Below are positions 2,683-6,625 of a DNA stretch of 64,000 nt, piece after piece. The first letter of the stretch is position 1, and each line of letters begins with the position of its first letter. The position numbers were made by a program, and so were the translations under genes. Below the pieces are notes generated by a model that searched no databases, was not told the origin of the DNA, and saw only the letters and a program-made list of their open reading frames with translations. The stretch comes from Felis catus (Eukaryota): contig NC_058368.1 in the NCBI RefSeq assembly GCF_018350175.1, forward strand, positions 86,492,001-86,556,000, given 5' to 3'.

Positions 2683-3499
2683 AAGTATCCTCTATAATAC
2701 CCATCACACATTTAGACCATCCCCTGCCCACTTCACCTCCAGCAACCCTCAGTTTTTCCCTATAGTTAAGAGTCTCTTATGATTTGTCTCCTTCTCTCTC
2801 CTCCCTCTCTCTCTTTCTTTTCTTTTTGTTCCACTATGTGCATCCATTTTGTTTCTTAAATTCAACATATGAGTGAAATAATATAGTATTGATCTTCTCT
2901 GAGTGACTTATTTCACTTAGCATAATACACTCTAGCTCCACCCAAGTCATACAAATGGAAAGATTTCTTTCCTTTTCATGGCTGAGCAATATTCCATTGT
3001 AAATATATATACCACATCTTCTTTTTCCATTCATTAGTGGATGCACATTTGGGCTCTTTCCATAATTTGGATATTGTTGATAATGCTACTATAAACATCA
3101 GGGTGCATGTGCCCTTTTGAAGCAGTATTTTTGTATTCTTCAGGTAAATAACTAGGAGTGCAATTCCTGAGTCATACCATAGTTCTATGTTTAGCTTTTT
3201 GATAAACCTCCATAACGATTCTAGAGTGGCTGAAACAATTTGCATTCCCTTCAATAGTGCAAGAGTGTTCCCCTTTCTTCCCAAACTCACCAGCATCTAT
3301 TGTTTCCTGTGTTGTTAATTTTAGCCATTCTGACAGGTGTGAAGTGGTATCTCATCATGTTATTCATTTTTATTTCCTGATGATGAGTGATGTTGAGCAT
3401 CTTTTCATGTGTCTGTTAGCCTTCTGAATGTCTTTGAGAAAATGCCTATTCATATATTCTGCCCATTTCTTCACTGGATTACTTGGTTTTTAGGTGTTG

Positions 3500-4566
3500 T
3501 GCTGGAAGCCGAGCTATCCCAGCCTGATGCCAAGGCCGAGGCTGTGGACGGATTGATGACTGCAAGGCGGCCCACGGACAGTGAAGCTTCTTGTACTCCC
3601 ATGCTTAGGTAATTTGGCCTTAATAAAAGTACCTGGGGAGTTGTCTGTTGGGGAATTGCCCTCGACAGGCTCCCTGGGAAAAGAACGATTAGGAAAGAAA
3701 ATAAGGTTCTGCAAGAAATTGTGCAGCCCTACATTTAGCCCTTGCCACCCCCTATAAAGACTCCTCTACCTAAAGGAAGGATAGCCTCATACATTTGCCA
3801 GCAAACGAGGCCAACAAAGGAGAAACATGGATTTGAAAGCCCCACTCCAGTAACTAAGGAGTGTATCCATGGGCACAGGTCACTCCAACCCCTAAGCCCA
3901 CTTGGCCCACAGGAGGCATTCCAGATGATGATTGAACCTAGTCGGTTAAGGTACAGAATGGTTCATTAGTTCCTAGGTGCATTATCTCTCTGAGAATGTA
4001 TAAGGTGTGGGTTTCTAAGGCCCTCTTGTCCCCCTCCTGGAACCTCAGGCTGAGGCGAACGCTTTTGTTCTTCAAACCACAAATGGTTCAGGGAAACAAG
4101 AGGTCATGTCCCTGCAACTGTTCCACTTGAGATGTTGAGAGATAAATTACCTTTCATGAAAACAGCAAAGCAAATGCTTTATAGGTTATAGATAAATGTA
4201 GATACATAATAAAAACAATGAAAGAAATTAATCAATAAGCAAAGGGCAGGAGGGAACGTTACAAGAAAACAATCATGTTATTCCTTAATGGGCGATTACA
4301 CAAAAGAACAATTTTAGAATGGGATAATGCCAGAAAACATAGATGACACATGCTATAAGCTAATTGTTAGCAAATATAATGCCGCGTTTGCCACAATAAA
4401 GTGGCCAGTTCAACACACTGCTGTTGTCTGTGTCCATTTTTATTTTTTGTTTTTATTTTAGTTTTTTTATTTTAGTTTTTAATTTTAGTTTTGTTTTATT
4501 TTCACTTTTTTGCTGACGCCGTTTCATCCTTCGGGAACCCCTGGTTGCTGGCGCTGGCCTCTGGCA
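3500..4566 (+). repeat. 5' LTR (~1.07 kb)
   Basis: Starts tgctgg, ends ctggca 2 nt before the PBS; TATA-like elements near 4354 and 4375; aataaa at 4395-4400. Confidence 0.88.
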
Positions 4567-4568
4567 AG

Positions 4569-4586
4569 TGGCACCCGAACAAGGAC
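4569..4586 (+). promoter_or_regulatory. Primer-binding site, tRNA-Lys(UUU)
   Basis: tggcacccgaacaaggac matches the canonical TGGCGCCCGAACAGGGAC at 16/18; candidate major splice donor caggtaagt follows at 4665-4673. Confidence 0.92.
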
Positions 4587-4708
4587 CTGAAGGTAATCAG
4601 CTAGGAGCACTCAGGATGGCTAGGACTCCACCTGGGGTGCCGCGGACCACCCTGCGGACATAGGCAGGTAAGTGAAGGGTGGATAGTCAGAACAAAATTT
4701 GAGAAGTT

Positions 4709-5812
4709 ATGGGCCATATTGAGTCTAAAGAAAGAAGACTCTTTATTGAATTACTACTGCATATGCTTGGAAAAAGAAAAATTAAAGTTACTAGTAGCCA
4801 GTTGGCTAAATTTTAAAATTTTATTCAGAAATGTTGTCTGTGGTTTCCTGAAGAAGGTACAGTAAACTTACAGACATGGAATAGAGTAGGACATGAGCTT
4901 AGAGAATATTATACTCTCCATGGACCAGAAAAGGTACCTGTAGATGCCTTTGCTCTTTTGAATTTAATTAAAGATGTTTTAGAATGCCAACAAGATGTTG
5001 AAAAACTCCCCCAACGGGAGAATTTTTCTTTAGAGAAGGCACTCCTTTGCTTTCTCCTGCAAAGTCTCAGGCAATGCTGGCTTAGGCCCCGCCTGATGGT
5101 GATAAGCTTACACCTGAAGAGGAACAAGATTTAGAGGATGCTGCAGCCAAGTATCATGATGAGGGAAGCCCTATAGGGGTTTGTGCAGCTCAGCTAAGGA
5201 ATAAAGAGCCTGCTAAGCCTTTTTGGGCTCCCCCTAGTCCTTTATATTGTGATAAATTGTTTAGACGTTTGCCACCTCGTCCCCCTCCTCCAATGACCTT
5301 GGCACAACAAAAGGTCCATAGAACTTCAGGTTTTTTGGCTGTGCTAAGACAGGCAGAACAGGCAAGGGATGGTGAATTTGCTCAATGTTTTTCTGTCATG
5401 TATGGTGGAGAATTTGATGAAAAGATCTCTTGGGAACCTCTGCCATATAAAATACTCAAGGAACTAAAGGTTGCATGTCAGGACTAGGGTCCTCTTACTC
5501 CTTATACATTAACTCTTTTGGATGCACTGTATAATAGGTGGATGACACCTTATGATTGGGTGCAAGTGGCCAAGGCCTGCTTGTCTGGAGGTAATTATTT
5601 ATTATGGAAGGCAGAATATGAGGAATTGGCTAAGAACAAGGTTTCCATAAAAAGAAAGTCTAAAAATGTTCCTATGACTTTAGACATGTTGTTAGGAAGA
5701 AGAGAATATAATACTGCCCGGAGTCAGATGTAATTAGACAAGGATGTTCTTGCAGAAGTAAATTCCTGTGCAGTCAATGCTTGGAAGTCCTTGCCAGTCA
5801 CTGCTTAAAAAG
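4709..5812 (+). pseudogene. gag: Betaretroviral gag remnant (matrix, phosphoprotein region, capsid N-terminal domain)
   Basis: MGHIESKERRLFIELL...WFPEEGTVNLQTWNRVG...YYTLHGPEKVPVDAF resembles MPMV/JSRV matrix; DLEDAAAKY; WEPLPYKILKELK and MTPYDWVQVAKACLSGGNYLLWKAEY resemble capsid; stops at 4814, 5485, 5731 and a frameshift near 5030. Confidence 0.92.
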
Positions 5813-5964
5813 CAACAGACAATACCCCAGGTACTTTTATTAAGGCCAAATTACCTAAAAGTGGGAGTACAAGAAGCTTCACTGTTGGTGGGCTGCCTTG
5901 CAGTCACCAATCCATCCACAGCCTGGGCCCTGACACTCAGGCTGGGATTGCTTGGCTTCCAGCA
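5813..5964 (-). repeat. Inverted copy of LTR positions 3500-3650
   Basis: Reverse complement aligns to 3500-3650 with about 15 substitutions and 1 indel by manual count (~89%). Confidence 0.96.
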
Positions 5965-6625
5965 GCATTGAGTTTGATAAGTTCTTTATGTATTTTGGAT
6001 ACTAACAATTTATCAGATATGTCACTTGCAGATATCTTCTCCCATTCTGTAGGTTGTCTTTTTGTTTTGTTGATACTTTCTTTCACTATGCAGAAACTTT
6101 TTATCTTGATGAAGACCCACTAGTTCACTGTTCTTTTGTTTCCCTTGCCTCAGGATATGTGTGTACAAAGAAGTAACTACAGCTTATGTCAATGAGGTTG
6201 CTGCCTGTGTTCTCCTAGGTATTTGGATGATTTTAAGTCATATTTAGGTCTTTAATTTATTTTGAATTTATTTTTGTGTATGGTGTAAGAAAGTGGTCCA
6301 ATTTCATTCTTCTGCATCTTGCTGTCCAGATTTTGCAAATCATTTATTGAAGACTGTCTTTTTTTATTGGGTATTCTTTCCTGGTTTGTCAAAGATAAGT
6401 TGACCATATAGTTATAAGTGTGGGTCCATTCCTAGTTTTTCTCTTCTGTTCCATTTATCTATGGGTATGTTTTTGGACCAGTACCATACTGTCTTGAGGA
6501 CTACCACTTTATACTATAGCTTGATGTCCAGAACTGTGATATCTCCAGCTTTGTTTTTCTTTTCCAATATGGCTTTGGCTATTCAGGGTCTATTGTGGTT
6601 CCATACAAATCTTAGTAGTGTTGAG

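Follow-up and report, generated by a model that had tools for sequence, protein, structure and literature searches.

An endogenous retrovirus with a U3 tip at both ends in the Felis catus genome: anatomy, joints and possible origin

In normal retroviral integration, integrase engages a U3 end and a U5 end that belong to the same viral DNA. To our knowledge, the joining of two like ends by integrase is known only from test-tube assays. A decayed retroviral insert in Felis catus, located in a 64,000-nucleotide stretch of contig NC_058368.1 (hereafter the window, in whose positions all coordinates are given), carries a U3 tip at each end. It therefore raises the question of whether two like ends were inserted together in a germ line, or whether more ordinary events could have produced the same arrangement.

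Anatomy of the element and its relatives

The element (3500–5964) is a dead, truncated endogenous retrovirus that lies within an L1 repeat and presents the same LTR tip outward on each side. Its 5′ LTR (3500–4566, plus strand, 1067 bp, TG...CA) could be aligned end to end with 30 full-length LTRs of the family, and its termini match those of the family; the family LTR start, TGCTGGAAGCC, is present in six of the seven family LTRs compared, the remaining one (L008) lacking the first T. Directly after the LTR end at 4566 lie AG and then TGGCACCCGAACAAGGAC (4569–4586, plus strand), which we take to be a primer binding site resembling that for tRNA-Lys3 (16/18 match). Similar decayed primer sites are carried by two relatives. 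The leader and a decayed gag follow (4587–5818, plus strand), reaching from matrix to the N-terminal domain of capsid according to Pfam and the ORF map. Gag_p10 is found within 4817–5134 (E 4.5e-21) and the Gag_p24 N-terminal domain within 5488–5733 (E 7.3e-25), in gag pieces that occupy different frames with stops in between; the two domains together are those of a betaretroviral gag. Lacking pro, pol, env and a 3′ LTR, the element was dead from the moment of insertion, and it then decayed in place.

The remainder of the element is an inverted copy of its own beginning. Nucleotides 1–151 of the LTR, all within U3, form the left arm (3500–3650, plus strand) and recur in reverse as the right arm (5813–5964, minus strand). 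The repeat search returned the arms as two inverted pairs, 3528–3650/5813–5935 (123 nt, 89% complementary) and 3500–3527/5937–5964 (28 nt, 93%), which gapped alignment merges into arms of 151 and 152 nt that differ in 16 columns, include one 1-nt indel and are approximately 89–90% identical. The left end opens with TG (3500–3501), and the right end closes with CA (5963–5964). The right arm also aligns at 89–94% identity with 5′ ends from about 38 further LTRs of the family, among the 40 scored of about 300 candidates. The initial annotation, made by reading the letters, had described inverted terminal arms of about 150 bp at about 89% identity, an LTR at 3500–4566 and TG/CA tips, all of which were reproduced. 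Within the 64-kb window there is no second full LTR or other proviral piece, and no second LTR in direct orientation with a U5 tip, the right end being the reverse complement of LTR nt 1–151. A normal provirus was rejected on the lack of such a second direct LTR.

Two other copies of gag exist in the genome, and that of the element matches them at 90% and 85% identity. The closest full relative, an ordinary class II (betaretrovirus-like) provirus at G000:C11:149326367-149335732 (loci L027+L028), is the 90% match. It shares with the element the LTR family, gag, the TG...CA tips and the 6-bp target duplication, but its LTRs are direct, with a U3 tip on one side and a U5 tip on the other, and gag-pro-pol is present in full. 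The element instead ends in a U3 tip on each side, breaks off in the N-terminal domain of capsid and lacks a 3′ LTR. The domain order dUTPase, RVP, RVT_1, RVT_thumb, RNase_H, Integrase_Zn, rve and IN_DBD_C is seen in this relative; the copy in the window stops in gag.

Joints with the host L1 and between gag and U3

The host L1 fragment to the left of the insertion (3300–3499) aligns at 87–90% to L1 paralogs at other genomic sites; the fragment to its right (5965–6127) aligns to the same paralogs directly after the left one. In 12 such paralogs, the last base of the left flank falls precisely on the position taken by base 6 of the right flank, and the L1 is uninterrupted apart from six duplicated bases, as the initial annotation had held in describing six extra bases in an otherwise continuous L1. 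The left target-site copy is GTGTTG (3494–3499), as in 11 of the 12 paralogs, and the right copy is GCATTG (5965–5970); they match at 4/6 positions and differ at bases 2–3 (TG vs. CA), that is, by two adjacent transitions. Duplications of 6 bp, as expected of a betaretrovirus, flank all five family elements checked (5/6, 5/6, 6/6, 5/6 and 6/6), a count that leaves out L006 and L008, in which the LTR boundary is ambiguous by one base. The match of 4/6 is poorer than in any of these five. At both virus–host joints, the LTR tip is exact and directly abuts the host L1. By sequence comparison, reverse-complementing the left flank does not yield the right flank; a fold-back inversion of the chromosome was rejected, since the right flank is the continuation of the L1.

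The inner joint lies between gag and the inverted U3. Gag of the two relatives aligns through 5818 and the inverted LTR aligns from 5813, and the break must therefore fall inside 5813–5818, a stretch reading CAACAG that is common to gag and to the inverted U3 (LTR nt 146–151). That gag ends in capsid agrees with the initial annotation, although the stop which it had put at about 5812 is hereby moved into these six bases. At the joint, here marked by a slash, the gag of both relatives reads ...AAAAAGCAACAG/CAxTA, and the left LTR, reverse-complemented, has ...TTCCC/CAACAGACAAC; base 5812 agrees with gag and base 5819 with the LTR. The exact 6-bp CAACAG is present in the gag of both relatives. 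By rough arithmetic, a microhomology of at least 6 bp would occur at a random joint by chance about once in 1000.

The exact microhomology at the gag/U3 joint is a new observation, and the junction is single-copy among the 40 scored of 286 candidates. When 5750–5880 was used as a query against the 2.43-Gb genome, the sole full-length match among those 40 was the locus itself, and the remaining 39 covered the LTR part only. The genome has three copies of gag, and in the two besides this one the junction is absent, ordinary gag continuing after CAACAG. The initial annotation had left two outcomes open, namely a TIR-bearing derivative family, should further copies exist, and a rare fossil of aberrant integration, should the copy be single. 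The second is borne out by the single full-length match, and no further junction loci for the first turned up among the 40 scored of 286 candidates. It had also named an inverted segment carried as standard by the family as a possible objection, and both gag-bearing relatives lack such a segment and continue with normal gag. A multi-copy TIR family and a family-standard segment were rejected on these results, and the element is best read as a single dead copy, a rare integration scar rather than a member of a TIR family.

Another reading is that the inverted arm was misjoined in the assembly, and the 36-nt junction string had no match in the metagenome scan. Such an artefact is nevertheless very hard to credit, because 20 sequencing runs contain words of the region and the arms, only about 89% alike, are neither collapsed nor chimeric copies of one LTR. 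The 20 runs, from 11 studies, hold 64–71% of the words sampled from 3400–6100, a figure that describes the region and not the junction words specifically; one of them carries a second organism label. The arm is moreover flush with the continuation of the same L1 copy, at the 6-bp offset of the family.

Probable insertion of two U3 tips and possible sources of the viral DNA

The arrangement is probably explained by integrase having inserted, in one event, a viral DNA with a U3 tip at each end. The initial annotation had proposed the same, and the proposal finds support here as the most economical reading, because two exact TG/CA tips are spaced by the 6-bp stagger of the family. It falls short of proof because the duplication matches at only 4/6 and two ordinary, improbable rivals stand. 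The points counted for the one-event reading are the exact family tips, the six bases present twice, the 6-bp habit of the family and the inner microhomology. A betaretrovirus-like integrase would have joined a 2.46-kb viral DNA, both tips of which were U3, in a concerted reaction with the usual 6-bp stagger. One side of this DNA would have consisted of the normal LTR, leader and gag, and the other of the first 151 nt of U3, reversed.

The gag/U3 joint would not have been made by integrase. As to how the two-tipped DNA arose, we tentatively prefer a single aberrant reverse-transcription product made within one core. Plus-sense gag CAACAG could pair with CTGTTG at U3 nt 146–151, such that the 3′ end of a displaced plus strand, extended as far as capsid, would snap back onto its own U3; alternatively, the partner of this 3′ end might be another plus strand, PPT-primed and just 151 nt long. 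Reverse transcriptase would then extend the paired 3′ end to the U3 tip, producing a short linear DNA with two integrase-competent U3 ends. A circle formed by autointegration was rejected by our own reasoning, as it would join gag to an LTR tip, and here gag joins U3 nt 146–151.

Whether the arms derive from one source or two bears directly on this choice. The initial annotation had offered both, one aberrant cDNA or two viral DNAs, and the distances, marker haplotypes, tree, whole-LTR divergence and CpG retention point partly each way. Both arms belong to the same LTR subgroup (13 rows, support 80/80), and the distance between them (0.099; mean family pair 0.096) falls short of the 0.115 expected of a star phylogeny, which makes a single age for both arms compatible with the data. 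The ML tree does not place the two as sisters, and a common source is not rejected when they are forced together (lnL difference 6.4, p-AU 0.24). At the linked family markers LTR nt 28 and 34, the left arm has a gap and A, and the right arm G and G; nt 34 is A in 9/10 family copies with the gap at nt 28, compared with 4/25 copies with G. At nt 31, where 34 of 35 family copies have G, both arms are non-G yet unlike each other, and apart from this the arms have no clear derived state in common. Private states of the left arm occur at nt 39, 57, 77, 103–105 and 140–141. By our own count, private events number about six per arm once tandem changes are taken as single events. All six family CpG sites are lost from the right arm, and three of the six are kept in the left. 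Of the 31 LTRs compared, none is more diverged than that of the element (mean distance 0.148 vs. 0.108), and the private branch of the whole left LTR is unusually long, with no such branch for the right arm. Judged from sequence comparison, the unlike markers, the lack of a clear derived state in common, the unequal CpG loss and the non-sister tree would speak against one common cDNA and favour two source DNAs or two events.

Two source DNAs could still have been inserted in one event, each giving one U3 end to a single integrase complex. The two long viral tails would then have faced each other in the chromosome, where host microhomology-mediated end joining could have paired CAACAG in the gag of one with CTGTTG (U3 nt 146–151) of the other and trimmed the flaps. 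This course is possible but rather unlikely. It accommodates the unlike subfamily markers (the nt 28 indel and nt 34), the non-sister arms, the unequal CpG retention (0/6 vs. 3/6) and the long private branch of the left LTR that the right arm lacks, and a microhomology of 6 bp is typical of alternative end joining. On the other side, the tree with the arms together is not rejected, both arms lie within one 13-row subgroup, nt 28, 31 and 34 all fall within 7 nt and may reflect a single complex mutation, and private events are about equal in the two arms. Two viral DNAs in one intasome followed by the loss of tails of about 7 kb and 9 kb also amount to more steps than one short cDNA, because both double loading and tail loss are needed.

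Different sources, and possibly different ages, would likewise be accounted for if two ordinary integrations had occurred in opposite orientations at the same 6-bp target, the second using the duplicated target copy beside the first tip, and a later deletion at CAACAG had removed the interior together with the middle target copy. Microhomology deletions within repeats are common, and the poorer 4/6 duplication would also find an explanation. The sequence of events is nonetheless improbable, as the second insertion must fall with base-pair precision beside the first. With about 300 candidate LTR 5′-end matches in the 2.43-Gb genome (286, 304 and 303 candidates), rough arithmetic puts the chance for the whole family at about 1 in 10,000 or less, and no other inverted pair was seen within 12 kb in two tables, each with 40 scored of about 300.

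A replication-based rearrangement of a normal provirus after integration, with two template switches, appears less probable again. A nascent strand stalling in gag would change templates at CAACAG, move onto the other strand of the 5′ LTR and copy U3 nt 145 to 1; at the tip, the likeness of ...CCAGCA to ...CCGGCA would allow a second switch to the end of the 3′ LTR and into the right target copy, with the rest of the provirus deleted. The 6-bp microhomology suits the first joint, and since the LTR tips are imperfect inverted repeats that both end in GCA, a flush second joint is conceivable. The second switch, however, would have to hit the last U3 base exactly, and any run-on would leave a reverse-complemented left flank, of which there is none. 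Two precise switches are required, compared with none if integrase inserted both tips.

Comparison with known systems and implications

In concerted-integration assays, as in solved intasomes, both viral ends are copies of a single type. Such assays are run with a viral-end oligonucleotide, two ends being joined across the target with a virus-specific stagger, and MMTV integrase is listed among the enzymes with robust concerted activity (PMC11054761). In vitro concerted integration by MMTV, PFV, MLV and AMV integrases resembles the present case in that two viral ends are joined with a virus-specific stagger. It differs in taking place in a test tube with short synthetic ends, whereas the element in the window would be a germ-line event in an animal, with ends borne on viral DNA. 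Neither an in vivo insertion of two U3 ends nor an ERV or provirus with two U3 tips was found in the open full-text papers searched, a set that does not include some 1.7 million PMC articles or most of the subscription literature.

Reverse transcriptase is known to extend a folded-back 3′ end in a self-priming side reaction, in which the 3′ end pairs at short complementarity on the wrong template and gives rise to an inverted segment (PMC6088434). The self-priming described there concerns minus-strand strong-stop DNA and dead-end products, whereas a plus-strand snap-back would here have given an integrable DNA with two U3 ends. By analogy, L1 twin-priming is reported to produce inversions (10.1101/2021.12.20.472354).

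One-ended aberrant integrations have been described for ASLV vectors with a bad end and for HIV-1 with sub-optimal integrase inhibitors or resistant integrase (PMC5041404). Like the element, they can involve truncated viral DNA, which is joinable to more viral DNA "in either orientation", and joints made by host repair. In those cases only one tip is normal; the second joint is irregular and marked by large duplications, deletions or inversions of host DNA in place of the short duplication (PMC5041404), whereas here both tips are exact and the host gains just six bases. One-ended integration was rejected on the exact LTR tips at both virus–host joints and the L1 that is continuous but for six bases. 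DIRS-type retrotransposons are also retroelements bounded by inverted terminal repeats (PMC3950715), but they form self-propagating families and use a tyrosine recombinase rather than a DDE integrase. The element is a lone dead copy, and the retrovirus from which it derives is of the integrase type, with direct LTRs in its relatives; a DIRS-type origin was rejected, as the closest full relative encodes a DDE integrase (rve, Integrase_Zn and IN_DBD_C) and has direct LTRs.

Two exact U3 tips, a 6-bp spacing and an inner microhomology joint would together be natural evidence for like-end joining in a cell, and the locus keeps a record of how an aberrant reverse-transcription or repair product was built, which would otherwise go unseen. 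It remains nearly in the balance whether U3-with-U3 insertion is a real and recurrent class of DDE integrase error, of retroviruses and LTR retrotransposons alike, in living germ lines, with core-packaged sub-genomic snap-back or strand-switched cDNAs synapsing by their identical tips and leaving a normal footprint. If it is, the locus would be the first mammalian, betaretroviral fossil of like-end insertion, intasome assembly in vivo would need no U3/U5 asymmetry, and such scars could be mined genome-wide for the frequency of this reverse-transcription error. Inverted like tips within 10 kb, combined with a duplication of the size proper to the family, provide a search image for genome-wide counts of such errors. 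For the host genome, the locus is without consequence, being one dead 2.5-kb insert inside an L1.

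Structure of the element and its L1 insertion site

The window is located at G000:C1:86492001-86556000 in a genome assembly of 2.43 Gb and 71 contigs. The insert is 2465 bp in length (3500–5964) and interrupts an L1 fragment. Its 5′ LTR (1067 bp; 3500–4566, plus strand) starts with TGCTGGAAGCC and ends with CTCTGGCA. Two bases past the LTR end, a putative primer binding site on the same strand, TGGCACCCGAACAAGGAC, agrees in 16 of 18 positions with the primer site for tRNA-Lys3. A leader and a decayed gag extend from there on the plus strand as far as the inner joint, with Pfam matches to Gag_p10 (4817–5134, E 4.5e-21) and the Gag_p24 N-terminal domain (5488–5733, E 7.3e-25); the gag pieces lie in different frames, with stops in between. 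The right arm (5813–5964, minus strand; 152 nt) is the reverse complement of LTR nt 1–151. Repeat search detected the inverted arms as two segments (123 nt at 89% and 28 nt at 93%), which gapped alignment merges with a single 1-nt indel, leaving 16 differing columns and a gap-free distance of 0.099. Since the element ends in inverted LTR nt 1–151, it begins with TG (3500) and finishes with CA (5964), and the identical U3 tip faces outward on both sides. Both the inverted closure and the TG/CA termini had been described in the initial annotation and are borne out here. Within the LTR, a T-rich run of four 12–14-nt units (TTTTTATTTTAGTT-like; 4437–4502) sits ~70–130 nt before the LTR end. Several family LTR alignments break or shift there, so the length of the run seems to vary between family copies.

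The left flank was used to retrieve 14 L1 paralogs, 12 of which were compared across the insertion site. In the paralogs, the left flank of the window stops at the base with which the sixth base of its right flank aligns. Hence the L1 runs on without a break apart from exactly six bases that are present twice, as had been claimed earlier. The insertion site reads GTGTTG in 11 of the 12 paralogs. The target copies in the window are GTGTTG (left) and GCATTG (right), a 4/6 match with two adjacent transitions (TG to CA at 5966–5967, a tandem change) and the poorest among the elements compared. Five family elements with clear boundaries all have 6-bp duplications (matching at 5/6, 5/6, 6/6, 5/6 and 6/6), so the six-base spacing in the window is that of the family; loci L006 and L008 were omitted from this count, their boundary being ambiguous by one base. 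The 4/6 match may be explained by a CpG intermediate in which one copy of GCG became GTG and the other GCA, or alternatively by two later transitions.

A solo LTR of the same family (L006/L052, G000:C1:59215629-59218780; ~628–1652 of L006), with its own 6-bp duplication, is inserted in opposite orientation into a further member of this L1 family; relative to the equivalent of the window insertion site (L1 3383–3388 equivalent), it lies ~110 bp upstream. Two family LTRs near one L1 position are probably a coincidence, but may point to a part of L1 that is favoured for insertion.

Family relatives and copy number

Searches with the LTR 5′ end returned about 300 candidate matches in the genome (286, 304 and 303). 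Only three gag copies were found, namely those of the window, of a provirus on contig C11 (90%) and of a copy on contig C21 (85%). The C11 provirus (G000:C11:149326367-149335732; 9.4 kb) has direct LTRs that are 96.7% identical, is flanked by a perfect GAAACA duplication, and is much younger than the window element. It contains Gag_p10, the p24 N- and C-terminal domains, two zinc knuckles, dUTPase, protease, RT, RNase H and integrase. The dUTPase directly precedes the protease, and the predicted gene order is the betaretroviral layout. Its gag, dUTPase, protease, RT, RNase H and integrase pieces are recognisable but scattered over several frames, and a weak HERV-K Rec-like match (E 1.6e-4) falls below the Pfam cut-off. 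The C21 copy (G000:C21:108176000-108195999, minus strand) has an internal deletion of ~3.5 kb relative to C11, from late gag to pol, and a 5′ LTR merely 76–80% like other family LTRs; its 3′ LTR and late env were not found within the 20 kb fetched.

The C11 and C21 gag sequences align with the window to 5818 and then continue as normal gag (...AAAAAGCAACAG|CATTA or CACTA). Together with the direct LTRs of C11, this indicates that the family does not normally carry the inverted segment. When 5750–5880, which spans the joint, was used as query, only its own locus matched in full among the best 40 of 286 candidates scored; the other 39 matched the LTR part only, starting at 5812–5815. No second inverted pair of LTR 5′ ends within 12 kb was present among the best 40 of ~300 matches for each arm. 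A multi-copy family of TIR-bearing ERVs is thus rejected on these 40 of 286 candidates. Of the two outcomes foreseen in the initial annotation, the single rare fossil is the one obtained: the element is a dead, single-copy ERV insertion of aberrant architecture.

The inner joint and the origin of two U3 tips

At the inner joint, base 5812 agrees with gag and base 5819 with the LTR, whose reverse complement reads ...TTCCC|CAACAGACAAC. The crossover therefore lies within an exact 6-bp microhomology, CAACAG (5813–5818), which refines the capsid break formerly placed at ~5812. By our arithmetic, so long a microhomology would occur at ~1 in 1000 random joints. The inner joint is the product of base pairing between short complementary ends, not of integrase. 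The CAACAG-3′ end of a plus strand arrived in capsid can pair with CTGTTG at U3 nt 146–151, which is available on the same or another plus strand, so the pairing geometry is compatible with one source DNA or two. An autointegration circle is excluded by reasoning, as the partner of gag would then be an LTR tip, not U3 nt 146–151.

The outer ends are different in kind: two exact LTR tips flush with the host, at the family's stagger spacing, are the signature of integrase action. The element is most simply explained by one concerted integrase insertion of a DNA that would have carried a U3 tip at each end, and of the explanations at hand this earlier reading is the best supported. In vitro, viral-end oligonucleotides are routinely integrated in concerted fashion, with MMTV integrase among the examples (PMC11054761). 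Two successive integrations in opposite orientation, the second beside the first, and a subsequent deletion would involve ordinary steps only, but need the coincidence of base-pair precision. The same holds for a replication template switch in gag and a second switch onto the 3′ LTR end, likewise made of ordinary steps, where the second switch must fall exactly at the last U3 base. The right flank continues the L1 and is not the inverted left flank, which excludes a plain fold-back inversion. One-ended aberrant integrations of ASLV and HIV-1, as described in PMC5041404, have one irregular joint and large host changes, whereas here both tips are exact and the host has gained six bases. Among open full-text papers, beyond which much literature lies, no in-vivo or endogenous two-U3-tip case was found. 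The element is useful as a search image.

Source of the arms, age and assembly

A single aberrant cDNA would have inserted with identical arms. A common source is favoured by the placement of both arms within the same 13-row LTR subgroup (tree support 80/80), by an arm distance below the star expectation (0.115) and close to that of a typical family pair (0.096), by a shared non-G at nt 31 (G in 34/35 family copies), and by similar numbers of private events, ~six per arm by our count with tandem changes taken as single events. Counting against it, and towards two source DNAs or two events, are two linked family markers that differ between left and right arms (nt 28, gap vs. G; nt 34, A vs. G), the non-sister position of the arms in the tree, unequal loss of family CpG sites (6/6 in the right arm, 3 kept in the left), and the divergence of the whole left LTR, the highest of 31 (0.148 vs. 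0.108). A tree in which the arms are constrained to group together is worse by 6.4 log-likelihood units (p-AU 0.24), and a common source is not rejected. Two viral DNAs are a rather unlikely source. The single-cDNA route is tentatively preferred, though it falls short of probable, because one core and one intasome would suffice, with the snapped-back 3′ end extended by reverse transcriptase, a known activity of the enzyme (PMC6088434).

Several differences in the left arm and right target copy are not single substitutions but tandem changes of two or three bases. In the left arm these are CTT to TGC at 3602–3604 (LTR nt 103–105) and TA to AG at 3639–3640 (LTR nt 140–141), each against 34–35 of 35 family copies.

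At a generic mammalian neutral rate of ~2.2e-9 per site per year, arms that were inserted as identical copies would have needed ~20 million years to reach a distance of 0.099, as a rough figure only. A mis-join is argued against because the arms are no more than ~89% alike and the right arm runs straight into the rest of the same L1 copy; judged from sequence, this is not what a mis-join would produce. The inner joint string had no match in a metagenome scan. Twenty runs from 11 studies hold 64–71% of the sampled words of 3400–6100, the joint words not being singled out, and one of these runs is filed under a second organism label.
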